NCBI GenBank assembly: GCA_043803405.1
Contig: JAZDKB010000019.1
Span: forward strand, 288,001 to 352,000
From: Spirochaetota bacterium
Lineage (GTDB): Bacteria > Spirochaetota > UBA4802 > JAFGDQ01
Direction of reading: 5' to 3'
DNA: 64,000 nucleotides
The notes beneath the pieces are model-generated. The model had not been told where the DNA came from and ran no database searches. It saw nothing but the letters and a program-made list of their open reading frames with translations. The position numbers were made by a program, and so were the translations under genes. Of the stretch, positions 47,383 through 62,467 are shown piece by piece. Positions within the stretch are counted from its first letter, which is position 1; each line of letters opens with the position of its first letter.

Positions 47383-48147
47383 ATGGAAAAACAAAAAACA
47401 AAGGAAATCAAAATGTTCTCTTATCAGGTCTGCGGCAAAACAAACAAAGGGCTGGTCAGGAATATAAATGAGGATTACTTTTTGTCGGATGTCGAAACCG
47501 GGGTTTTCATAGTTGCTGACGGAGTCGGAGGCAGCCAGGGCGGGGATGTCGCAAGCCGGGTTGCTGCCGAAAGCATTCTAGGATCCCTTGTTGCCATGCA
47601 TAACAAAGGCGAAAATAATATTGATGATGAATTAATAGACAGCCTGGTTGACAAAGCACAGGAAGAAATATTTAAATTTTCCGCTACGGATCCTTCACTA
47701 AAAGGAATGAGCACTACGGTTGTTTTCGCGGTAACACAGGACTCAGGGATCTGGATTGCCAATATAGGTGATTCGCGTGCTTATCTTGTCCGGCACCATA
47801 AAATAGAATTGCTTACAAAAGATCATTCCGTGGTCGCCAAATGGGTTGAAGAAGGAATTATAACAGAAGAGGAAGCCAGGGTGCATCCCTTACGTAATGT
47901 CATTACGCAATCTATAGGTTTAGACCTGAGAGAAGGCTGTTATAAAAGAAAATATAAGATATATAATAAGGATATATTTATTTTATGTTCTGACGGGTTG
48001 TGGAACATGCTGAAAGACGACCGGATCAAAGATATATGTCTTGGCTCCGACGATGTAGCAACAATATGCGAAAATCTTATTTATTCAGCAAACACAGCCG
48101 GAGGCCATGATAATATAACTGTAATAGTGATAAAAGTTGTTAAATAG
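47383..48147 (+). CDS. PP2C-type Ser/Thr protein phosphatase (Stp1/PrpC family)
   Basis: GLVRNINED, VADGVGG, GMSTT, NIGDSRAY, DHS, CSDGL, GGHDNIT; start may be 47413. Confidence 0.95.
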   Translation: MEKQKTKEIKMFSYQVCGKTNKGLVRNINEDYFLSDVETGVFIVADGVGGSQGGDVASRVAAESILGSLVAMHNKGENNIDDELIDSLVDKAQEEIFKFSATDPSLKGMSTTVVFAVTQDSGIWIANIGDSRAYLVRHHKIELLTKDHSVVAKWVEEGIITEEEARVHPLRNVITQSIGLDLREGCYKRKYKIYNKDIFILCSDGLWNMLKDDRIKDICLGSDDVATICENLIYSANTAGGHDNITVIVIKVVK

Positions 48148-48185: not shown

Positions 48186-49991
48186 TTACTCCAGCCCTGA
48201 AATATGCAAATCTTTGTCAAAAGTAACAACAATGTCATATGATATTGTTGTTTTCTGGTTCGGTTTCATTGTAAGAACTATCCTTCTCTGTCCCTGACTG
48301 TAACCTGTGTCTTCAGCATTTTCAGCTGGAAGGAAAGGAGCGGACAGGTTTTTAATTTCCACTTCGATCTTCTCGTTTTGAGATACAGGGATTCTGTCGC
48401 GAAGAAGTACCTTTGTTTCAGTCTTGATATTGTTTTCTACTTTCAGCTGATATGAATAAACAATCCGCCGTTTTCCGCCGAATACTCCGGCAGCGTCCTC
48501 GTATTTTTTTACCAGTTCCTTCTGAGCTGTAATACGCGGTTCCATTCCGAGAACAAGAGTATCCTTTTTACCTGCCGGAATATATGGAAGCGTTACTTTG
48601 CCCATATATTCGTTATCAAGAAATACCTGTGTCTCACCGGTAAGCCACGGGATCTCGGATGTATTGGTGACTTCCGCGGTGATAAATGCTTCGCATGACT
48701 GCCATGAATAAAGTTCGAATTTAAATTCGAGCGATTTACCCGGAACAAAATTATACTCTTTGATAAATTTTTTCTGGCTGCTGTTCGTTGACGAAAGATT
48801 CTGTTTGAGCGGAAGCTCCAGTTCGATGTACGCTCCTTTCTCCGTTATCTGGGTAAGCGGAATCTCTGCCGGCTCCGAATCCTTTGCTTTTTGCGGAGGC
48901 GAGGCCGGTGCGGCTTTCCTTGCAAATTTTTCTTCTTTTATCGAATCAGACATGCTTTCTGCCGCGCCATACGAAGGACTATAAATCGAGAGATACCATG
49001 GAGCGAAATAGGGTGATATAAGCGCATTGGACGGCGCACCGGTGGAGAGAAGCAATTTGATATTTTCCCAGTCTTCTCCTGTTTTCTGAAAGATGCTTCC
49101 ATATACCGAGAGACTCAACTTACCATTTTCCCTGTCTGCACGAACATCATATGCCATGTCCCATCGTGTGTTGGGAATGAGGTAACTGAATTCGATTTTA
49201 GTTTCTACATCGCGTGCTGAAAACATGTTAAGAACGATACGCTTTTCAATATCGGTCCCGGCCGCAGGTTTTTTAAGATACGCGACCTGCTGTGCGTAAA
49301 ATGCGTTTGATTCGGCATATTGCTGTATTTCCATGCCCGATCTGTTCTTAACCTGCGCTTTATTGAGAACCTGGTAGTTCGAGTAGTAACTTTGTCCGGC
49401 AATCTGCGCCAGTTCGAATTCCCATTTCTGGATTTCTTTTCCCAGATCTTCCCTGGCAGTTTCAATCCTTCTTCTCGTTGTGACTATAGAATTATTTTTA
49501 TGTGAACAGTAAGAAAGAGTGTCCTCCCAGACCTTAACCTGGGGAATCCGGGTCGCGAGTTCTTTTGAGATATTTGTTTCAGTGAAACTTAATATCGACT
49601 TAACGAATTTTTCCTGCGTGTTGAGTGAAGAGAGATCATCTATATAATCCTGATCTTTCTGGCGAAGTTTCTTCAGCTTATCTTCAATATCCTGAACTTT
49701 TTTCTGGAACCGTTCAACAAGCATTTTCTGTTCGACTTTAACTGACATTATTTTTCCGTCGTAATCTTTGGGCAAGGAGCTTTTAATCGACCAGTCATGC
49801 AATGTTTTAGGGAGACCGGTCATTACGATCTGGTTATCTCCTTTTTTAACTTTCACAAGTGCAGTCCGGGTTACGAGAGCCTGGTTCTGATATACCTTGA
49901 CTGACTGTATGGTGCTTGAATATTCATTATCGGCTGCAGAACATATCTCTGCAGATAAAATGATCAGTGCAAATATAATAATATATTTCAT
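48186..49991 (-). CDS. Mucoidy inhibitor MuiA family protein (DUF4140/DUF4139)
   Basis: VKVYQNQALVTR, W..AYD, QKTGEDW, LSTGAP, DRIPVSQ motifs. Confidence 0.88.
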   Translation of the reverse strand: MKYIIIFALIILSAEICSAADNEYSSTIQSVKVYQNQALVTRTALVKVKKGDNQIVMTGLPKTLHDWSIKSSLPKDYDGKIMSVKVEQKMLVERFQKKVQDIEDKLKKLRQKDQDYIDDLSSLNTQEKFVKSILSFTETNISKELATRIPQVKVWEDTLSYCSHKNNSIVTTRRRIETAREDLGKEIQKWEFELAQIAGQSYYSNYQVLNKAQVKNRSGMEIQQYAESNAFYAQQVAYLKKPAAGTDIEKRIVLNMFSARDVETKIEFSYLIPNTRWDMAYDVRADRENGKLSLSVYGSIFQKTGEDWENIKLLLSTGAPSNALISPYFAPWYLSIYSPSYGAAESMSDSIKEEKFARKAAPASPPQKAKDSEPAEIPLTQITEKGAYIELELPLKQNLSSTNSSQKKFIKEYNFVPGKSLEFKFELYSWQSCEAFITAEVTNTSEIPWLTGETQVFLDNEYMGKVTLPYIPAGKKDTLVLGMEPRITAQKELVKKYEDAAGVFGGKRRIVYSYQLKVENNIKTETKVLLRDRIPVSQNEKIEVEIKNLSAPFLPAENAEDTGYSQGQRRIVLTMKPNQKTTISYDIVVTFDKDLHISGLE

Positions 49992-52611: not shown

Positions 52612-53337
52612 ATGTTATTACGCAACCTTAGCCGCTATTTTATTATTTCCGTGTTTGCGCTCTCATTTATATTCACCGGACAACAATTCTCTTTTTCGCA
52701 GGGAACAGCGCCCGCGAAAACGAAGGCAGTGGAAACGCCTGCCGCGGCTGCTGTAAAGACCGCTGCCGTACCCACTGACGCCGACCTTCAGGCGGATGCG
52801 GACGCAAAGGCGAAAGCCGCTGCCGAAGCTAAAGCCGATTACGATGCGAAAGCGAAAATTACTGCGGATTCCAAAGCGGATTACGATGCAAAAGCAAAAG
52901 TAGCTGCTGCTGCGAAAGCGGATTACGAAGCAAAAGCGAAAATTTCCGGCAAGGCAAAAGCCGACTTTAACGCAAAATCAAGATCAGCAGATGATGCTAA
53001 ACTGAAGATTACCGCCAGGGCAAAAGCAAAGACCGCTGCCGAAGCGAAAGAAAAAGCTGCAATCGCTGCAAAGGCAAAAGCCGAAGAGAACGCAAAGAAA
53101 AAAGCGGAGGCCGACGCAAAGAGAAAGGCTGCCGCAGAAGCCAGGAAAAAAGCTGAAGAAGAAGCGAAAGTAAAAGCAGACGCAGCGGCAAAGGCTAAAG
53201 CCGAAGCTAAAAAGAAAGCAGCCGAAGAAGCAAAAGCCAAAGCCGAGGCTGCGGCAAAGGCTAAAGCCGACGCGGATGCAAAGAAGAAAGCGGATGCAGA
53301 CGCAAAGATAAAAACAGAGCCGGAGCCAAAGAAATAA
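52612..53337 (+). CDS. Exported Ala/Lys-rich low-complexity helical protein (TolA-like composition)
   Basis: aggag RBS, signal peptide, KADYDAKAK and AEAKKKA repeats. Confidence 0.85.
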   Translation: MLLRNLSRYFIISVFALSFIFTGQQFSFSQGTAPAKTKAVETPAAAAVKTAAVPTDADLQADADAKAKAAAEAKADYDAKAKITADSKADYDAKAKVAAAAKADYEAKAKISGKAKADFNAKSRSADDAKLKITARAKAKTAAEAKEKAAIAAKAKAEENAKKKAEADAKRKAAAEARKKAEEEAKVKADAAAKAKAEAKKKAAEEAKAKAEAAAKAKADADAKKKADADAKIKTEPEPKK

Positions 53338-53537: not shown

Positions 53538-55562
53538 ATGCCTAAAAGAAAAATTCAAATTGAAGTATATCCCCTGCGCTTAAATTTAAAAACCGTAATC
53601 CGTCACGCCTCCGCGACAAGACACGAGGGCGAGAGTATCTGGGTTCATGTAACCAGAGACGGGATCGAGGGATTCGGCGAGGGCTGCCCCAGAACTTATT
53701 CTGCGGGGGATGACCTTGAATCAAGTGTTGCCTGGATAAATAACGAATTTATCAATAAACACGAATGCCCTGAATCGCTGGATGAACTGAAAGCATGGAT
53801 AAAAAATAACAGTTCTCAAATAGACATATATCCTTCCGCCTGGTGCGCGCTTGAAATGGCATTGCTTGATCTTTTCGCAAGGGAAAAAAAATGCAGCGTT
53901 GAAGAATGCCTGGGTCTCAAGGATTATAAACGTTCGGGACGCTATTCGGCAGTTATCCCTGACAGTAAAATATGGGAGTACACTGCAATAGCAGATAAAT
54001 CTCTTATTCGCGGAATAACTGACTTTAAAATTAAATTAAAAGGAAAACCGGAAAAAGACCGTCAGAAGCTGGATATTTTATTTGATTTAAGCAGGCAGCA
54101 CGGAATTAAAAATATTAGAATTCGCCTGGATGCGAATAATTTATGGAAAGGAAAAAGCGAAGAAGCAATTGAGTATATTAAAAATTTAGGTACGTCAATT
54201 TTCGCGGTTGAAGAACCTGTCGGCCCCCGCGATATTGAAGACATTAAGAAAGTAAGCATTGAAACCGGCCTGCCGGTCATTTTAGATGAAAGCATCTGCA
54301 CTTTAAATGATCTTTCACAATATAAAAGCCTTTCCGGCAAATATATCGCAAATATAAAAATCTCGCGTGTAGGCGGTATCCTTCGCGCCTTTGAAATGAT
54401 TGATGAATTAAAAGAAATGAACTGGCCTGTCATAATAGGCAGCCATGTCGGCGAAACGTCTTTACTTACGCGGGCGGCACTGATTATTGCTTCATATACA
54501 GGGGAAAGCCTCATTGCTCATGAAGGCGCCTTTGGCGATTATTTAGTCGAATGTGAACCTGCAGAACCAATGCTTAAATTCGGCCGTTACGGATTACTGG
54601 ATTTATCCAATACTTATTTCTTAAAAAATGTTCAGGGATTAAAATCAATACCTCCGGAAAACTGGAATACCGGATTCGGAATGGACTGCCGCGTTCCGGG
54701 AAATATTATCAACGATACTTCTGAGATAAATTACATAATAACCCGGGATAATTACAAAATTCATTATCGTACATGGGGTAAAAAAACAGGAGATGATGTT
54801 ATTTTGATTCTGCACGGCGGCATGAGCCATTCTCTCTGGCAGGCGCCCCTTGCGGATAAAATACTTTTAAAAGCGCCCGGCGTGACTGTTGCCGCGGCCG
54901 ACAGAAGGGGATGCGGCTTGAACGAAGGCCGCGGAGACCTGTATGCCGTACAGACCCTGATTGATGACCTTGTTTTGCAGATCGATCATTTAAAGAAATC
55001 ATTTAAACGTATCCACCTTGCAGGCTGGTGCCAGGGCGCGCAATACGCGTCGGTTGCAGCGGAAAAAAAACATAATGAACTCTCAAGCCTTATATTGCTG
55101 ACACCCGGATTTTTCTGGAACGACAGGTTCCGGTCGGTTCTGAGAATCAGTGAAAAATTTCTAATGGATATGATCGATGAATTCGGATTATCGCCCGAAC
55201 GCGACCGTGCGTGTATTCCCCTGCCTATGGAAGCTGCCGACTTTACGCTCGATATGAAATGGCATGATTTTATTGAATCAGACACCCTTAAAACGAAAAT
55301 GATTACTTTAAAATCAGCCAGTATCATGGACGAAATTCAGGAGCTTTCATGGTATGCAATTCAGAATAACCGGCTGCCCCTGCTCGCAATACTGGCGGAA
55401 AACGACCGTATTGTTGACAATAACAAAGTCATGCAGTTTATCGGCCACAAGTTTTCATCCGATAAACATAACAGGCAGATTTCAGTAAATACCGGCCATG
55501 CAATCCACTTTGAAAAAGCCGATGAAGTTGCCGATGCGATATTAGAATTTATCACGCAGTGA
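53538..55562 (+). CDS. Fusion of enolase-superfamily (muconate lactonising/dipeptide epimerase subgroup) domain and alpha/beta hydrolase
   Basis: GFGE, KIK, DAN, EEP, DES, NIKISRVGG; then LHGG, DRRGCG, GWCQG, ENDRIV, GH. Confidence 0.88.
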   Translation: MPKRKIQIEVYPLRLNLKTVIRHASATRHEGESIWVHVTRDGIEGFGEGCPRTYSAGDDLESSVAWINNEFINKHECPESLDELKAWIKNNSSQIDIYPSAWCALEMALLDLFAREKKCSVEECLGLKDYKRSGRYSAVIPDSKIWEYTAIADKSLIRGITDFKIKLKGKPEKDRQKLDILFDLSRQHGIKNIRIRLDANNLWKGKSEEAIEYIKNLGTSIFAVEEPVGPRDIEDIKKVSIETGLPVILDESICTLNDLSQYKSLSGKYIANIKISRVGGILRAFEMIDELKEMNWPVIIGSHVGETSLLTRAALIIASYTGESLIAHEGAFGDYLVECEPAEPMLKFGRYGLLDLSNTYFLKNVQGLKSIPPENWNTGFGMDCRVPGNIINDTSEINYIITRDNYKIHYRTWGKKTGDDVILILHGGMSHSLWQAPLADKILLKAPGVTVAAADRRGCGLNEGRGDLYAVQTLIDDLVLQIDHLKKSFKRIHLAGWCQGAQYASVAAEKKHNELSSLILLTPGFFWNDRFRSVLRISEKFLMDMIDEFGLSPERDRACIPLPMEAADFTLDMKWHDFIESDTLKTKMITLKSASIMDEIQELSWYAIQNNRLPLLAILAENDRIVDNNKVMQFIGHKFSSDKHNRQISVNTGHAIHFEKADEVADAILEFITQ

Positions 55563-55611
55563 GCCGGTGTTTTCGTTCAATACAAATGCTCCTATTCTGG
55601 ATAAAATGAAC

Positions 55612-55694
55612 TACCCCGCCGCAAGTAGCGGGGTATCAAAAAGTTAGAAAAGTTTTCTGCGGCAAGCCGCGGGGAATTATACTAAAAGTGATTA
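55612..55694. repeat. Double-hairpin REP-like element between convergent genes
   Basis: taccccgccgcaagtagcggggta and ctgcggcaagccgcggggaattatactaaaagtgatta. Confidence 0.7.
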
Positions 55695-57041
55695 AAAGTG
55701 GTCAGGATATTCCCAGTAATAATGAGAATTCCTCCATCCTTTTTTATAACTTTTGTTGTATTTGCAGACAGATACAAAATTGGTCAAATTTTTAAGGCTA
55801 AATAGTGATTTAACCAAACGATACTGATATGTTGGAAAAGAGTAAATGTGTTTTTTTATATAATTGCACCCAATATATATAGTGTCCAGATTTGTTCCTT
55901 TTGGTTGATGAACCACATAAGAAAATCTGTACTTGTCCCAGTCTTCTGGAAAATTTTTGTGGATGAGACGGTCTTCCGCTACCAGTTGATCCATTAACCC
56001 TGTCCCTGGAAGTGGAGTCAACATTGTAATCTGAATAATGTCCACTCCCAAATCGACAAGAAAGTCGGCAAATTCTTTATAATAAAATGACGATTCGTAA
56101 TCGTTTCCGATAATAAATGCCCCTAATACAGCTATTCCGTATTTGTGGAAAGCATCTATAACTCTTTTGTAGTTTTCTATCCCTACCTTAAGATTAATCC
56201 CTTTTCGCATGTTTTTGAGCATTTCAGCCTTCATTGTCTCAAAACCGATAAAAACGAACATGCAGCCGGATTGTGCTGCCAATTCGATTATACGTTCATT
56301 CGTACTGGCATTGATTGAAGTCTGCATCCACCATTTTTTTCTGATATTCCTGCCCAGCATTCCCTCGAGCAGTTTGATGGCTCTCTTGTAATTTTCTTCA
56401 CTATAACCTATAAGATTGTCATCGACAAAAGTAAAGTACTTGCCCTTGATCCCTTCCAACTCATTGAGGACAGAGTCAATGTTTCTCTGGCGAAATTTCT
56501 GTCCAAGATACCTCGATACTGAACAAAAATGGCAGTCAAAGGGGCAACCCCGGGAAGTTTGAACGGAATGCCAGAAATAGGCTGGATGGAGCAGGTCATG
56601 TCTCGGATTGATATTAACTTCGGATAAATTCAGTTGCGGCCCTAAGTATCTGTCTGCCAGTGTATTGTTTTCGAGATCATCTATAACCTGTCCCCAGATG
56701 CCTTCCGCTTCACCAACCAATACACTGTCAGCGTATTGAAGGATTTCATCGGGAAGCATGGAGGCATGAATGCCACCCATGATGACCTTGATATTTCTTG
56801 CACGATATAATCCTGCAATTTCATAGGCACGGGTTATGTTGCTGGTAAAGGCAGTTATGCCAACCAGATCGGCTTCTTCGAATTCAAATTTGTCGAAGTT
56901 TTCATCAATTATTTTTATTTCCCAGTTATCAGGTGTCACAGCCGCAACACAGGCAAGACTCAATGGCGGGAATGTGGCAGATCTGCTGAGAAGAATACCG
57001 CTTCTGCGGCCTACCGGGTTTATCAACAACAGTTTTTTCAT
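55692..57041 (-). CDS. Cobalamin-binding domain radical SAM protein
   Basis: PPLSL, DLVGIT, GGIHAS, GEAE B12 domain; SRGCPFDCHFC; GFE, TPLPGT. Confidence 0.94.
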   Translation of the reverse strand: MKKLLLINPVGRRSGILLSRSATFPPLSLACVAAVTPDNWEIKIIDENFDKFEFEEADLVGITAFTSNITRAYEIAGLYRARNIKVIMGGIHASMLPDEILQYADSVLVGEAEGIWGQVIDDLENNTLADRYLGPQLNLSEVNINPRHDLLHPAYFWHSVQTSRGCPFDCHFCSVSRYLGQKFRQRNIDSVLNELEGIKGKYFTFVDDNLIGYSEENYKRAIKLLEGMLGRNIRKKWWMQTSINASTNERIIELAAQSGCMFVFIGFETMKAEMLKNMRKGINLKVGIENYKRVIDAFHKYGIAVLGAFIIGNDYESSFYYKEFADFLVDLGVDIIQITMLTPLPGTGLMDQLVAEDRLIHKNFPEDWDKYRFSYVVHQPKGTNLDTIYIGCNYIKKHIYSFPTYQYRLVKSLFSLKNLTNFVSVCKYNKSYKKGWRNSHYYWEYPDHF

Positions 57042-60000
57042 TACAATGTAGCTTTTCCCTTTTCCCCTGCTATCTTATTAAGAATGCGGAAAATATTGTC
57101 TGCTTTGAAGGGCTTTTTTAAAAAATCATAAACACCTTTATTCTGGTATTCATTCTCATTTCCGTCAAGTTTCCCGGTCATAAAGACAACAGGTACTTCT
57201 CTGTTTACCTGTTTTAATTCTTCAAATACCTGCTCTCCGTTGATGATTGGCATCAGAATATCGAGAAACACTACATCCGGGCAGAATTCGTTGAAAATCC
57301 GTGCCGCCTTCCTGCCGTCTTTCTCGGCAATAATATTATTAAAGCCACCCTTTTTTAATGTCAGCATCATTAAATTTATTACTTCTTCTTCATCGTCAAT
57401 AATCATAATTTTAATATTTTTTGATATTTCAATATGCATATCTGTCTTATTAAAGGTTTTTTTTACTTTTATTATTTCGTTTCCTTCAGGGAACGGCAGT
57501 TTCATTATGAATGTTGCTCCCTTACCCTCCTCACTCTCAACCGATATTGTAGCATTATGCTGTTTGATAATAGTGTGTGTAACCGATAGGCCAAGCCCTG
57601 TGCCGGTTATACCGAGATCGTCCTTTGCGTACGCGCCCTTGGTTGAAAAGAAAGGATCGAAAATTTTATTCATTGTCTCTCTGCTCATTCCAATGCCGGT
57701 GTCGGAAAATCTGATCTCAAGATGCCTGTCCGTATCCTTTACCGATATGATGATATTTCCACGGCCCTTGGGCTTTATGGCATGAATGGAATTGATCAGT
57801 AAATTTAAAAAGACCTGTCCCATCTGATCCCTGTCGAACAATACATCCGAGTGTTCCCCGAATTCCAGCCTCACATCAATATTTTCCAGCTGTGTCTGCT
57901 TTTTCTGAAGTTTTACGGTCTCCTTTATAACATCAGTTATATCCTGTATCGCAAAGTCGGGATCTTTGGGTGTTGCGAATACAGACAATTTATTAATAAT
58001 GCCGCTTCCCCGCTTTGTGGATTTTTCGATTTGCTGCAGAGATTCTTTAATATCTGCTGCAATGGACTCCTCATCCAGTATAAGCTGCGCGTGGCCAAGT
58101 ATCACATGCAGAATATTATTAAATTCGTGGGCTACACCTGACGCAAGCTGGCCAACGGCCGACAGCTTTGCTGACTGGAATAACTGCTCTTGAAGGGTTT
58201 TGCGCTCCTGTTCAAGTTCGATGTTGTACAGGGCGAACGCGATCTCATCTGCCACTTCTTTTAACAGACGGGGCTCTTCATTATTAGATATAAAATCAGG
58301 TTTTAAGGCAACGGACATTATCCCGTATGTTTTATCATCATACTTCAGCCTGTTTAACATCCTTAATGTTTTACAGTATTTGCTTTTAAACCCGCAATCG
58401 CCGCATTTAATGTCCGGGTTATCAATTACAACCGTATCCGGCTCGGACAACGCCTTTTCGCAGCAGCCCGGCATAACATCATTCCTGAATTTCTCAGTAA
58501 AAACCCGGAAATCTTCCGTAAAGCCGGATTCGAATGCCCGGCTGAATTTGCCCTTTTCATCAAAAAGAACAATCCATGCTTCACCATGGCCGTTGGTTAA
58601 AGCGAGCTTGTCGCAAATATCTTTCATCAGCCTGTCGCTGTCCTTCTCGTGAGTGATAAGGTGGTCTATATTCAGTATGGCAAGAAGGACTTCATTAAGG
58701 TGCTTAATCTTTTCCTCGTGCCTTTTTAGTTCGGCAAACGATCTCGCATTGTTTATGCTTATTCCTATCTGCTGTGCTATGCCGGAGAGGAGGTTCATGT
58801 CGCTTATATTGAGAGGCCTTCTGCTGCCTGCGTTGTCAATAGCCAGAATTCCCAGCGGCTTTTCCTTATATGCAATAGGCACTGTAATAAAGCTTTTTGT
58901 GCCGATTTGATCTACAAATTCTTTGCTGCGCGGCGACATGTCATTAATTATATCATTAATATCGTTGATGAGAAAAGGTTTCTGCTCTTTAAACGTCCTA
59001 ACAAATATTCCTTTTGATTTTGGCCTGTTCAAATGGAACTCAGTATTCTTTAATATCTCTTCCTTTGCCGGGTCATATCCATAACCTGCTTTGTAAACGA
59101 GCTTGCTTGCGTTATCATCTGCAAGCAGAATAATTCCACTGTCAAAATCCGTTCTTTTTTCCAGTATCTCCATTATTGATGCAAACAAATCATCCATGTC
59201 CAGTATTGACGATATGGCCTGGCCTATCTCCTGAATAAGCAGGGCATTATTGAAGCGATTATTAATTTCTTCCAGAAGCTGTTCCGCTGTATTTCCCTGC
59301 GATTCAGAGGCGCGTATAAGTTCTTTATTTTTTTTCCGCTCATAATAATTTGATAAGCCAAGAACAGCGCCTGAACAAAGCAAAAAAGTTATAAAAGAAT
59401 AAAGGACAGGTAAAAATATAAACGAGGTTATTGATAAGAGTACAGCGAAAAGAGATAAATAATTGCGTATCAGCTTCAATTGAAATGACGCAGGCTTATC
59501 CCATGATACTATATATTTGCAATATTCATCGCCTTTATGTATACATAATGGATGTTCAATATTTGAAAATTTATTATTAAACATCGTCGGTACTGCTTCA
59601 AACAAGCCAAGCCGGGCCTCGCATTGATATGGCTTTTCCATGACATCTTTTTCCGGACGCGCACTTATTTCCACTTTATTATGGCCGAGTTTGCGCGTCT
59701 TTACCGTGCCGCCTCGTGTAAGTTTGGAGCTTATATGGCCGGCTGATGAGTAAGCTGCCTCAACTGTAATAAAACCCAACATATACTGACGAATAAGGTT
59801 ATAGGAGCCTGATTTTGATGCAAATCTGCCTGTTTCCCGTGATATATTTACATTCCCTGTCTTTTTCACTAAAATTTCATGAAAAAGATCCGACTGCCTC
59901 TGGGTATACCAGTATCCCAGATCCTCTAATTCATGCAAAGAAATTTCCGCATACTCAAGCAGTGAATTAATATCAACATCGGGATAATGCTTTTTGATAA

Positions 60001-60052
60001 AATTAATATAGGTAATTATCATTCGGATATTATATAAATGAGGGGCATTCAT
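57041..60052 (-). CDS. Hybrid sensor histidine kinase (V4R-like N-terminus, TM, GAF, GAF-like, HisKA, HATPase, REC)
   Basis: EHPLCIHKGDEYC V4R-like; AHEFNN H-box; DTGIGM, FDPFFSTK, GTGLGL; IIDDE, LDILMP, KPF receiver. Confidence 0.92.
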   Translation of the reverse strand: MNAPHLYNIRMIITYINFIKKHYPDVDINSLLEYAEISLHELEDLGYWYTQRQSDLFHEILVKKTGNVNISRETGRFASKSGSYNLIRQYMLGFITVEAAYSSAGHISSKLTRGGTVKTRKLGHNKVEISARPEKDVMEKPYQCEARLGLFEAVPTMFNNKFSNIEHPLCIHKGDEYCKYIVSWDKPASFQLKLIRNYLSLFAVLLSITSFIFLPVLYSFITFLLCSGAVLGLSNYYERKKNKELIRASESQGNTAEQLLEEINNRFNNALLIQEIGQAISSILDMDDLFASIMEILEKRTDFDSGIILLADDNASKLVYKAGYGYDPAKEEILKNTEFHLNRPKSKGIFVRTFKEQKPFLINDINDIINDMSPRSKEFVDQIGTKSFITVPIAYKEKPLGILAIDNAGSRRPLNISDMNLLSGIAQQIGISINNARSFAELKRHEEKIKHLNEVLLAILNIDHLITHEKDSDRLMKDICDKLALTNGHGEAWIVLFDEKGKFSRAFESGFTEDFRVFTEKFRNDVMPGCCEKALSEPDTVVIDNPDIKCGDCGFKSKYCKTLRMLNRLKYDDKTYGIMSVALKPDFISNNEEPRLLKEVADEIAFALYNIELEQERKTLQEQLFQSAKLSAVGQLASGVAHEFNNILHVILGHAQLILDEESIAADIKESLQQIEKSTKRGSGIINKLSVFATPKDPDFAIQDITDVIKETVKLQKKQTQLENIDVRLEFGEHSDVLFDRDQMGQVFLNLLINSIHAIKPKGRGNIIISVKDTDRHLEIRFSDTGIGMSRETMNKIFDPFFSTKGAYAKDDLGITGTGLGLSVTHTIIKQHNATISVESEEGKGATFIMKLPFPEGNEIIKVKKTFNKTDMHIEISKNIKIMIIDDEEEVINLMMLTLKKGGFNNIIAEKDGRKAARIFNEFCPDVVFLDILMPIINGEQVFEELKQVNREVPVVFMTGKLDGNENEYQNKGVYDFLKKPFKADNIFRILNKIAGEKGKATL

Positions 60053-60373
60053 TTTTTATTACTTCTTACCTCTCTAGATTAAAGGCCATGAACCCATGAA
60101 ATTACTTCCAAAACAGTAAGTAATAAATGAATCCTAATTTAAATAAAAAATTCTTACTGTCTACTTTTTTGGAGCAAAGTCAAAATGACTCATAAGTGAG
60201 TGACATTATAACGCAAAGGTTAAAAAATTCAAATAAAAAAACGGGTATTGAAAATTTATGTATATAACGTAGTATAAAATATTCTTAGGAGAAACTGGAT
60301 TCCTAGATATCAATTTTGTTATTAGTTAAATTTCTTCTATCTTTATCCACACAAGTGTGCGCTGTATGTATTA

Positions 60374-62467
60374 CTAATTAAGCAATGATGGCATAGTAGG
60401 ATCAATCCACTGCTTGAGATAATCAATATATTCATGGCCGTACTTTGTATCAATAATCCATAGATTATAATATCTGTCTGTAACTATATAATTCAGGTTC
60501 AGATATTCAACAGGATAAACCATCACAGATATATTATTATAATAATACATTCTCCCAAGCACATTAATTGCGTTATTCAGATTTTCCCATGGAAGATCCA
60601 TATCAACAATAATGATCTTTATGCAATTCAATAATTCCGACATATTAATTCCAATGTCGGACCGGTCAATAATGAATACAGCTTTTAATTCATTATGTTC
60701 TTTTAATGAATATACATTGCATGACCTTGTTAACTGTATCTTTTTATATATTTTTTCAAGAGGTTCTTCGTTAAAGTCCATATCAGGCCTCAGGCTTTTT
60801 ACAAGAAGCCCTCCTCCTGATTGTTCCTGATAAAAGTTATCTAAAGTTTCATAATCCTCACTGTTAATTTCCTCAATTATAAATCCCTTATACAGGGACT
60901 CTGTATTTGAATGCATGGCACATGACAGATAAGCAAATGTATCCAGTGTAACTCTTCCCGGATTATTAGCTTCCTTGTAAACTCCGCCGAAAAAATGTTC
61001 TGAAAACCTGTTATCAGGTTGATAGAAAAACATTAAATAATCTATTTTGAATGCTGGAAGAATAAACATAATATCAAGATAATTTAAAACATGGTCTAGA
61101 ATATGGATTCCTGTCTTATTTGTATTTTCTGTTGATATGGCTGCTAGGTGCTGAACAAGCCATGATCTTTGATAAGCTCTAATTATGGAGCAATGTCCAA
61201 AAATTTTTCCGTTTTCCTGATATGTGATGTATGTGAATATTTCCCGGCCTTTCCGGTATAGCCTGTTGTATATATCCCTGATCTCGCTGCTGCGTGATTC
61301 AATTAATTTATATTTCCTGGGATAAATAAATTTTGATTTAAAGAAAAACTCCCATAAGGAATCAATATCCAGCTCAGGTGATAGGTTTATATGGGGATTA
61401 TCGGCATTGCAGACTATCGCAAAAAGCCGGTTAAATGCATCCATCTCCATATCAAGAATGGAAAATCCATATTTGATATTCTTTTCGTCCACACTCAGCT
61501 GGTATACAACAGAAGCAGTACATTTTAAATTAATACTCCCGTTGATTACAATGTATAGCTCTTTAATGAAAAGTCCCGGCATAAGGGGGGACTCATCAAT
61601 ACGCAACTGCATGGCAAATCCTGCGGATGATATATCCGTCACTTCAAGTTCCATTGTTTTATTCAATAAAGGATGATTAAAAATGATTTTCGGTGCAGGC
61701 ACAAGCTTAAGCCTGGGATTGCGGTTCTCTCTTTTTGTCCGATTCTTTAATGCGTTTTCCTGCGACAGGACAATAGAACAGTCATTCTGAAAAGCAGTCC
61801 TTTTATAACTGCAAAATCCTGAATAGACAATCTCCTCTCCGGTTATTTCTGCAGGCTCAGTGGATCGCAGCTCAACAAAAAACGGTTTGGCTGTATCCAA
61901 TTTGTCAAGTAAAGGCTGGAATTCTTCATCCGGTTTTATGAGGAAATCTGCGGAGCTGAATTCCTTTAAACTGCCGCATATCCTTATATTGTCCTGAATA
62001 ATTTCCGCATTGACATCATCAGTGGCAGGGTATCTCCTGCTTTTTCTTCTGTTCCAGACGTAGCCTTTTACCGGCAGTGCCGCAATTAGCTTATCTTCGG
62101 TAACATCGATAGTTTCAACAGGAACTACTATAATTGATTTGCCGTAATTAATAATAATATTCAGTAAAATATAATCGGCCGGATTATACTGTTCGTGTTT
62201 AATCCAGTGCGCCGTGAGATTCTCATCAACGCATGGCTCGGGAGATGCCATAACAGTAATGTTTTCTTTTGTTTCCGGGTTGTGAACATGTACCCGGATA
62301 GTGCTGCCGGCGAAGTGAATATGATTAATAAGATTGATAATTGCGGCTTTTTTAATTCTTTTTGCTGAAGTTAAAGATCCGGCCGGAGCTCCGCCAAAGC
62401 TTTCCTTCAGCTCCGAAACTTCCAGCTCTTTGGCAATAAGCCCGGTATTTGATAATGTAGCTTTCAT
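60374..62467 (-). CDS. Multi-PilZ domain protein with C-terminal GNAT-like region
   Basis: RKSRR and RENRNPR...DISSAGF PilZ motifs; C-terminal GHCSIIRAYQRSWLVQHLAA segment (GNAT-like assignment is inference). Confidence 0.75.
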   Translation of the reverse strand: MKATLSNTGLIAKELEVSELKESFGGAPAGSLTSAKRIKKAAIINLINHIHFAGSTIRVHVHNPETKENITVMASPEPCVDENLTAHWIKHEQYNPADYILLNIIINYGKSIIVVPVETIDVTEDKLIAALPVKGYVWNRRKSRRYPATDDVNAEIIQDNIRICGSLKEFSSADFLIKPDEEFQPLLDKLDTAKPFFVELRSTEPAEITGEEIVYSGFCSYKRTAFQNDCSIVLSQENALKNRTKRENRNPRLKLVPAPKIIFNHPLLNKTMELEVTDISSAGFAMQLRIDESPLMPGLFIKELYIVINGSINLKCTASVVYQLSVDEKNIKYGFSILDMEMDAFNRLFAIVCNADNPHINLSPELDIDSLWEFFFKSKFIYPRKYKLIESRSSEIRDIYNRLYRKGREIFTYITYQENGKIFGHCSIIRAYQRSWLVQHLAAISTENTNKTGIHILDHVLNYLDIMFILPAFKIDYLMFFYQPDNRFSEHFFGGVYKEANNPGRVTLDTFAYLSCAMHSNTESLYKGFIIEEINSEDYETLDNFYQEQSGGGLLVKSLRPDMDFNEEPLEKIYKKIQLTRSCNVYSLKEHNELKAVFIIDRSDIGINMSELLNCIKIIIVDMDLPWENLNNAINVLGRMYYYNNISVMVYPVEYLNLNYIVTDRYYNLWIIDTKYGHEYIDYLKQWIDPTMPSLLN

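Follow-up and report, generated by a model that had tools for sequence, protein, structure and literature searches.

We describe here a locus of four genes in a 64,000-nucleotide stretch of DNA (the window) from a Spirochaetota bacterium (contig JAZDKB010000019.1, positions 288,001 to 352,000), which on balance probably serves to make and to sense a small acylated (fatty) signal molecule. The first of its two core genes (window positions 60374-62467, minus strand, 697 amino acids (aa), defined by its open reading frame (ORF) and a structure model) encodes a protein in which PilZ domains precede a GNAT region, and the second (57041-60052, minus strand, 1003 aa, defined by ORF and Pfam) encodes a hybrid histidine kinase, the sensor. 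The other two ORFs encode putative tailoring enzymes: a B12-binding radical S-adenosylmethionine (SAM) protein (55692-57041, minus strand, 449 aa) and, on the plus strand (53538-55562, 674 aa), a fusion of an enolase of the muconate lactonising enzyme (MLE) subgroup with an alpha/beta-hydrolase. Together they represent one form of an uncharacterised cassette that is widespread among anaerobic bacteria. Its conserved core is formed by the PilZ-GNAT gene and the sensor gene, whereas the tailoring genes vary and none of them is required. No description of the cassette was found in the open-access literature, which was searched as listings and not as full texts.

An initial annotation of this DNA had proposed that an acyl signal is synthesised, tailored and sensed by the four genes as a set. 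The GNAT fold, the V4R/H-NOX type of input domain and the co-occurrence of the genes support this proposal, but the unit has to be narrowed to the PilZ-GNAT/sensor pair. The layout it had described, with three co-oriented minus-strand genes converging on the fusion gene and the radical SAM start overlapping the kinase stop (TAATG), was verified in both the ORFs and the overlap.

A conserved pair with exchangeable neighbours

The survey of gene neighbourhoods covered 159 flanked loci, some of them redundant: 80 were the top-ranked of 558 genome matches, and 79 came from the 80 top-ranked of 513 metagenome matches. Of these loci 124 contain the sensor, and in 70 of the 76 loci with at least 5 kb of downstream sequence it lies within 6 kb of the PilZ-GNAT gene. 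A second phylum, Desulfobacterota by its NCBI labels, to which one Syntrophaceae-labelled locus belongs, was sampled evenly. A search of these 250 genomes at E<=1e-30 found the GNAT protein in 23, the sensor in 24 and both in 20, against 2.2 expected, kin not being independent. As read from coordinates, the two genes are adjacent in 14 of the 20 genomes having both. Within the phylum of the window itself, matches to the GNAT profile were limited to 4 of 201 genomes. The two loci most closely related carry the label uncultured Leptospirales. A small-molecule enzyme is found nearby in 50 of the 58 well-flanked loci, and the context favours small-molecule acylation plus sensing.

The genes that accompany the pair differ between loci. 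Of the 159 loci, 19 have a close orthologue of the enolase (58-65% identity), 14 have the hydrolase and 12 a close orthologue of the radical SAM (63-67%). The two closest loci have other tailoring genes, namely a radical SAM of another subfamily (L008) and a PP-loop ATPase (L009). Co-occurrence of all four genes in other genomes, implied by the initial annotation, was found in two loci (L054 and L134), in which the set has been reassembled in another phylum and with another gene order. As a single set, however, the four genes do not hold together: the pair is conserved, whereas the radical SAM, the enolase-hydrolase and the output of the kinase are all exchangeable.

If the pair were the sole unit and the four genes neighbours by chance, the complete set would be expected to be rare, as it is (2/159), and the fusion gene does stand on the opposite strand and is missing from close kin. 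We nevertheless regard this account as very improbable. A radical SAM orthologue of at least 61% identity is present in 7 of the even-sample genomes and is beside the sensor in 6 of them, the sole close enolase orthologue among the 250 sampled genomes adjoins a GNAT/sensor pair, and the set reassembles in L054 and L134. Judged by sequence identity, close radical SAM orthologues track the sensor, and the chance-neighbour reading is largely refuted.

Exchange of methyltransferase and enolase

The commonest third gene of the related loci is a class I methyltransferase, and 19 of the 21 sampled genomes with this family methyltransferase also have a GNAT match. The fusion gene of the window, convergent with the other three genes, is at the position most commonly occupied by the methyltransferase in related loci, and the window's genome has the enolase and no methyltransferase match. 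Enolase and methyltransferase are almost mutually exclusive. When 101 of the 159 loci were set aside as too short for this count, the 58 well-flanked loci comprised 30 with the methyltransferase only, 18 with the enolase only, one with both and nine with neither; over all 159 loci the corresponding numbers are 57, 28, 2 and 72. In a quick tree built from 86 GNAT domains, 13 changes are required to account for the enolase label, and at least 11 of them are forced by well-supported branches.

A natural swap is seen between two loci with the methyltransferase (L053 and L097) and one with the enolase (L056), in which the GNAT proteins are 89-96% and the flanking genes 80-95% identical. The sensor input domains of L053 and L097 are only 62-69% identical to that of L056, while being 90% identical to each other. 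This co-variation of the input domain is read from pairwise identity values and the swap represents one event; among the columns of the sensor alignment there was no clean diagnostic residue for the methyltransferase or enolase state. The repeated exchange of methyltransferase for enolase gives a handle on the product: both should act on one molecule. The radical SAM and fusion proteins had been put forward in the initial annotation as tailoring or degrading enzymes, and the context favours such small-molecule chemistry, but a methyltransferase usually replaces the enolase.

The putative tailoring enzymes

In the Pfam scan the fusion matched MR_MLE_N/C and Hydrolase_4, and the radical SAM protein matched B12-binding and Radical_SAM. 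The enolase part has the full MLE catalytic set, comprising K164/K166 (the KxK base), the metal ligands D198, E225 and D250, and K274 on strand 6. The hydrolase part has a Cys nucleophile, C498, with D623 and H654, and the nucleophile elbow GWCQG is found in 10 of 11 fused relatives, with Ser in the remaining one. The radical SAM protein combines its B12-binding domain with a CxxxCxxC motif (C166/C170/C173). No named family reached its cut-off for either protein in the library scan. The best scores of the enolase were 92 bits against the menC cut-off of 200.65 and 64 against the DgcA cut-off of 400, and for each of o-succinylbenzoate synthase (OSBS), dipeptide epimerase, N-succinylamino-acid racemase (NSAR) and DgcA it was below the cut-off. 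Menaquinone synthesis (MenC/MenH) was rejected, with scores far below the cut-offs.

A GNAT, an MLE-subgroup enzyme with both Lys bases and a hydrolase are also the gene logic of catabolic or detoxifying pathways of the NSAR or DgcN/DgcA type, in which a compound is acylated, racemised and hydrolysed; the sensor would then detect the incoming substrate. The weak matches to dipeptide epimerases, N-acylamino-acid racemases and DgcA are consistent with this, and a GNAT enzyme that acylates D-amino acids has been cited (PMC8762209). We consider such a pathway quite improbable, since it has no role for the methyltransferase or the radical SAM, all of the family scores are far below the cut-offs and no uptake system is conserved. 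In addition, the enolase is present in 19 of the 58 well-flanked loci only and the hydrolase in just 14 of 159.

The PilZ-GNAT protein

On the basis of its structure model, the 697-aa protein is predicted to be an acyltransferase controlled by cyclic di-GMP (c-di-GMP). The AlphaFold2 model, built from 52 sequences, has a predicted local distance difference test (pLDDT) score of 85.9 and a predicted template modelling (pTM) score of 0.80. The predicted barrels are a YcgR-N-like domain (residues ~32-140), PilZ1 (~141-238) and PilZ2 (~245-359), and these are followed by a tandem GNAT region (residues 356-697, window 60377..61402, minus strand, delimited by structure matches and alignment). Residues 32-140 match YcgR-N (Z 9.3), and residues 245-359 match the PilZ domain of Alg44 (Z 11.1, root-mean-square deviation (rmsd) 2.4, 106 aligned), with YcgR and MrkH also matching. 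Residues ~354-683 match the histidine acetyltransferase 9emd (Z 12.0, rmsd 4.7, 270 aligned), the tandem GNAT region matches the glucosamine N-acetyltransferase 5kf1 (E 2e-8), and the Atlas model concurs, with TM scores of 0.55-0.63 to GNAT clusters. The GNAT-like C-terminal domain anticipated in the initial annotation is thus borne out by structure comparison, and is in tandem. The kinship to LuxI or FeeM that had also been suggested was not detected: neither protein is among the Pfam matches or the 50 listed fold matches of the model, although such absence excludes nothing. Sequence searches of the 697-aa protein gave no NCBIfam family and no PDB sequence match, and in Pfam a single weak match to PilZ alone; there was no match to Pfam GNAT in the 52 family members scanned.

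In PilZ1 the RxxxR arginines R141/R145 are kept in all 145 family members compared, and the second motif (D/NxSxxG) has D in 134, S/N in 144 and G in 79. The second motif of PilZ2 is intact here (D278-S280-G283) and is kept across the same 145 members as D278-S/T280-G283. The messenger itself is likely present in the host, because there are 28 GGDEF matches in the genome. The conserved features of the GNAT region are F-x-Y-P-x-K, W436, H440, a short motif A with G453, N486 and G606-x-N608. Among these, F-x-Y-P, W436, H440 and G606 are invariant in 19 sequences including distant branches; H425 is conserved in the near family only. The motif A for binding coenzyme A (CoA), normally Q/RxxGxG/A, is shortened to K/R-x-G453, in which the G is kept in 142 of 148 sequences, as is N486. 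The residue at the end of strand 4, which we take to be the counterpart of the catalytic Glu of FeeM, is an invariant His and not Glu, and H440 is a candidate catalytic residue of the GNAT region. The family comprises 632 clusters at 50% identity, and 1654 longer proteins at 90%; the 120 of these 1654 that were listed include no Myxococcus record, and plasmids gave no match. Two family members (P0134 and P0164) have NERD nuclease-related and Ser/Thr kinase domains fused ahead of the PilZ-GNAT part.

The sensor kinase and its input domain

The sensor consists of an input domain of H-NOX/V4R-clan fold (residues 1-190, window 59483..60052, minus strand, from model and alignment), a hydrophobic segment (residues ~197-235, 59348..59464, minus strand, from sequence), a GAF domain, a second, weaker GAF stretch, HisKA with H642, HATPase and a receiver with D931; the Pfam scan recognised GAF, HisKA, HATPase and REC. 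The hydrophobic segment is likely to form a membrane hairpin, which would leave the input domain in the cytoplasm. The model of residues 1-190 (pLDDT 90.8) is closest to the H-NOX protein of S. oneidensis (4u99; TM 0.76, Z 16.4, rmsd 2.8, 175 aligned), followed by VirS (Z 12.9) and the V4R sensors PoxR and DmpR (Z 8.4-8.5). The N-terminus had been described as V4R-like in the initial annotation. This is correct at the level of the V4R/H-NOX clan, and the V4R profile PF02830 matches 39 of 63 family members at E<=0.05, but this copy is not among them and its model is closest to H-NOX.

Three residues, C144, H167 and C170, are present in 63 of 63 input domains and C178 in 60; together they are predicted to form a zinc site, the pattern being like that of the H-NOX zinc site. 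The haem motif YxSxR (YxS/TxR) is absent from all 63 input domains, which also have no conserved position for a proximal His (16 of the 63 have any His within residues 96-113). Sensing of haem or nitric oxide (NO) by the input domain was rejected on these grounds. In its architecture the domain is thus a ligand pocket of the H-NOX type, yet it does not qualify as an H-NOX haem sensor, and the HNOB family has no match in the window's genome (94% complete).

The output of the sensor is variable. When 34 of 58 full-length sensors were scanned, 17 were hybrid kinases, 11 had HD-GYP-type outputs and five had class III cyclases, and one was joined to the major facilitator superfamily (MFS). At L016 (14661-17018) the sensor input module is fused to an MFS transporter domain, possibly in a cut or misassembled gene.

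Related cassettes and paralogous loci

At ~24% identity there is a branch of the family with more PilZ repeats, in which GNAT, methyltransferase, B12 radical SAM and a related sensor occur in 4/4 loci fetched. A 342-aa tandem GNAT homologue (L007:5664-8739) overlaps a family methyltransferase and is beside a PF03547 transporter, which is also next to several full cassettes.

A sister cassette was sampled as all 20 distant relatives of the enolase that lie away from GNAT genes in the even sample. An LpxL-type acyltransferase is beside 19 of the 20, a homologous sensor occurs with 14 and a FadL channel with 12; the five LpxL loci without a sensor have contig breaks on the sensor side. The sensor input of the one member compared is homologous to that of the GNAT loci (probability 96.9%, E 1.4e-10), and one sister-cassette locus has a radical SAM that is 56-59% identical to those of GNAT loci. 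These loci (L186-L190, L192, L195-L207) include some with a B12 radical SAM, and searches for the sister cassette found no description of it. The twentieth enolase relative (L191:7326-11307) is divergent from a GH3 amide synthetase gene. A fatty-acyl molecule is indicated because the sister cassette joins a homologous sensor and a related enolase to an LpxL-type acyltransferase, often with FadL.

The window's genome itself contains a candidate second synthase-sensor locus (L167:6255-12463, contig C33), in which a BioF/Kbl/SPT-like pyridoxal phosphate (PLP) acyltransferase and a FemAB-like GNAT are directly followed by two 550-aa kinases carrying the same H-NOX/V4R-fold input; the PLP acyltransferase scores below the cut-off of the CqsA-type model. 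A third paralogous kinase with this fold (L168:8602-10233, contig C10) is upstream of a REC-PAS-kinase-REC gene, and no synthase was seen near it. In another genome of the window's phylum (L180:3189-9353) a degenerate PilZ-tandem-GNAT is fused to the start of a non-ribosomal peptide synthetase (NRPS) with condensation, adenylation, carrier and condensation-family domains; a second NRPS comes after it and ends in a reductase-type domain. A fatty-acyl ligand is expected mainly because the sensor fold pairs with three unrelated acyl-transfer enzymes.

Acyltransferases of the GNAT, LpxL and SPT-like types, methyltransferases and B12 radical SAM enzymes are all known classes of lipid-making or lipid-modifying enzymes. 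The enzymes could therefore make or remodel a membrane aminolipid that is retained by the cell, with the sensor monitoring the lipid or an intermediate, in which case the cassette would serve homeostasis and not cell-to-cell signalling. The input domain is predicted to be cytoplasmic and beside a membrane anchor, and the GNAT branch is without a conserved transporter, both of which fit this account. It is rather unlikely all the same: FadL in 12 of the 20 sister loci implies exchange with the medium, and the frequent swaps of tailoring genes, once together with the sensor input, fit diversification of a signal better than housekeeping. The distribution is also patchy (29/251 and 4/201 genomes).

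Proposed mechanism and points against it

For the preferred reading, a synthesis-and-sensing cassette for an acylated signal, we infer every chemical step as follows. Once the PilZ domains bind c-di-GMP, the tandem GNAT region would transfer an acyl group from acyl-CoA or acyl-acyl carrier protein (acyl-ACP) to a small acceptor. The product would bear a carboxylate, since a metal-bound carboxylate lies beside the site at which MLE-subgroup enolases act. Methyltransferase and enolase would then give alternative products, a methyl ester or an epimerised or cyclised form, the radical SAM might add a carbon methyl, and the Cys hydrolase may be an optional reset step. The kinase would bind the tailored product in its haem-less H-NOX-fold pocket. 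In relatives with HD-GYP-type sensors, perception of the product would reduce the level of c-di-GMP and thereby act back on its synthesis.

A broader proposal, which we advance only tentatively, is that anaerobic Desulfobacterota and some spirochaetes may have an unrecognised chemical communication, in which interchangeable acyltransferases (c-di-GMP-gated tandem GNAT, LpxL-type and PLP-type) make fatty-acyl signals for haem-less H-NOX-fold receptors to read, with tailoring "dialects". The swapped tailoring would consist of methyltransferase versus enolase, B12 radical SAMs and the PP-loop ATPase, and the dialects would change with the receptor pocket. If the cassette is rightly read as one of signal synthesis and sensing, it would offer syntrophic and sulfate-reducer-type anaerobes a candidate for both their signal chemistry and a class of receptor. 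The haem-less H-NOX/V4R domains, a large family of orphans, would gain a ligand class, and c-di-GMP would have a direct link to the making of a signal. The cassette has few genes, and apart from the sensor their products are predicted to be soluble, so that it lends itself to heterologous expression.

Several observations weigh against the signalling cassette. In the window's copy of the 697-aa protein, E169 and D174 replace the signature residues of DxSxxG in PilZ1, and PilZ2 is without the canonical RxxxR, its arginines being spaced RxxR. Neither an exporter nor FadL is a conserved part of the GNAT branch, with one FadL-like match in the 159 loci. The stand-alone GNAT of L007, which is without PilZ, adjoins a methyltransferase, and no sensor was recognised in its 17-kb locus; conversely, two genomes (G111 and G144) have the sensor and the radical SAM with no GNAT match. 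Same-genus and same-family genomes with the pair (90-93% complete) show neither fusion/enolase nor methyltransferase, and because these two closest genomes show neither, the two steps are not obligatory. The comparison of L133 with L139 runs in the opposite direction to the swap described above, the input being 82% and the GNAT protein 76% identical. The strand-6 residue is Arg in 20/20 sister enolases and Lys (K274) in 27/27 GNAT-linked ones, so the reaction of the sister enolases may differ. Finally, PixB of Myxococcus xanthus, whose architecture is similar, affects motility, and the substrate through which it does so may be a protein (PMC8316039).

A rival reading is that the PilZ-GNAT protein acylates or binds a protein, perhaps the sensor, as a c-di-GMP effector in the way proposed for PixB; the remaining enzymes would then act on that protein too, or else on some metabolite of their own. 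The matches of the tandem GNAT region, which include protein acyltransferases such as N-myristoyltransferases, and the Ser/Thr kinase fusions in some family members agree with this, as does the observation that the GNAT domain of PixB alone restores motility (PMC8316039). We judge it unlikely, however, as it gives no account of a carboxylate-acting small-molecule enolase replacing the methyltransferase at least 11 times, or of a homologous sensor pairing with unrelated acyltransferases and FadL.

Other features of the locus

The PilZ-GNAT gene and the kinase gene are separated by a 321-nucleotide AT-rich gap, in which a sigma70-like site (60205..60232, minus strand) is found as a consensus match only (10 of 12 positions). 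A GC-rich hairpin read from the sequence (55612..55635, strandless) lies between the convergent radical SAM and fusion genes, and is possibly a terminator or a dispersed palindromic repeat. The GC content of the four genes (0.37-0.43) is close to the genome value of 0.39. Just upstream of the fusion gene is a gene for a 241-aa, exported-looking Ala/Lys repeat protein (window 52612-53337), which is without a Pfam match and was not seen in related loci. A DUF4139/DUF4140 protein (48186-49991) and a PP2C phosphatase (47383-48147) were likewise not seen there.

Comparison with known systems

The input domain has its fold and its zinc-site-like Cys/His pattern in common with H-NOX (4u99), the V4R sensors (PoxR, DmpR and MopR) and VirS. 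Unlike these sensors, it is followed by a hydrophobic segment and GAF and is fused to four output types.

In the alpha-hydroxyketone signalling systems CqsA/CqsS and LqsA/LqsS, the gene for an acyl-condensing synthase is beside that for its cognate hybrid kinase. CqsA and LqsA are PLP enzymes, and CqsS and LqsS are six-helix membrane receptors, whereas the present cassette has a GNAT and a soluble H-NOX-fold pocket. The paralogous L167 locus of the window's genome does, like CqsA and LqsA, use a PLP acyltransferase, albeit one below the CqsA-type cut-off. To our knowledge, the PhcB/PhcS system of Ralstonia has no acyltransferase, PilZ, enolase or radical SAM. Its methyltransferase is described as making a fatty acid methyl ester signal that is sensed by a histidine kinase (PMC8578825).

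The closest characterised protein, when set beside the 697-aa protein by described architecture, is PixB (MXAN_2604), which likewise has two PilZ domains and then a GNAT acetyltransferase (PMC8316039). PixB binds c-di-GMP in vitro and requires its GNAT domain for function, the substrate being unknown (PMC8316039). The mutated arginines of PixB (R121 and R331) are 210 residues apart, compared with 108 for R141-R249 here, and the text of that paper mentions no tandem GNAT, no partner sensor and no tailoring enzymes (PMC8316039). Nas343 and Nas354, which are FeeM-type N-acyl amino acid synthases, provide an example of a PilZ-fused GNAT-fold acyltransferase that makes an acylated small molecule, and c-di-GMP control and a messenger role have been proposed for them (PMC4897644). 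In these synthases a single FeeM domain with a catalytic Glu precedes a single PilZ, whereas here the order is reversed, the GNAT is in tandem and the His is invariant; no cognate sensor is described in the passages concerned (PMC4897644).

A GNAT, an MLE-subgroup enolase and a hydrolase are combined, as here, in the N-succinylamino-acid racemase and DgcN/DgcA pathways (PMC8762209). The present cassette differs in that it has a Cys alpha/beta-hydrolase, an enolase that can be replaced by a methyltransferase, and coupling to PilZ domains and a sensor. The hydrolase of the racemase pathways is a metallohydrolase. A synthase beside its cognate sensor is a kind of cassette already known, and the present one would be an example with an unassigned receptor class and chemistry.

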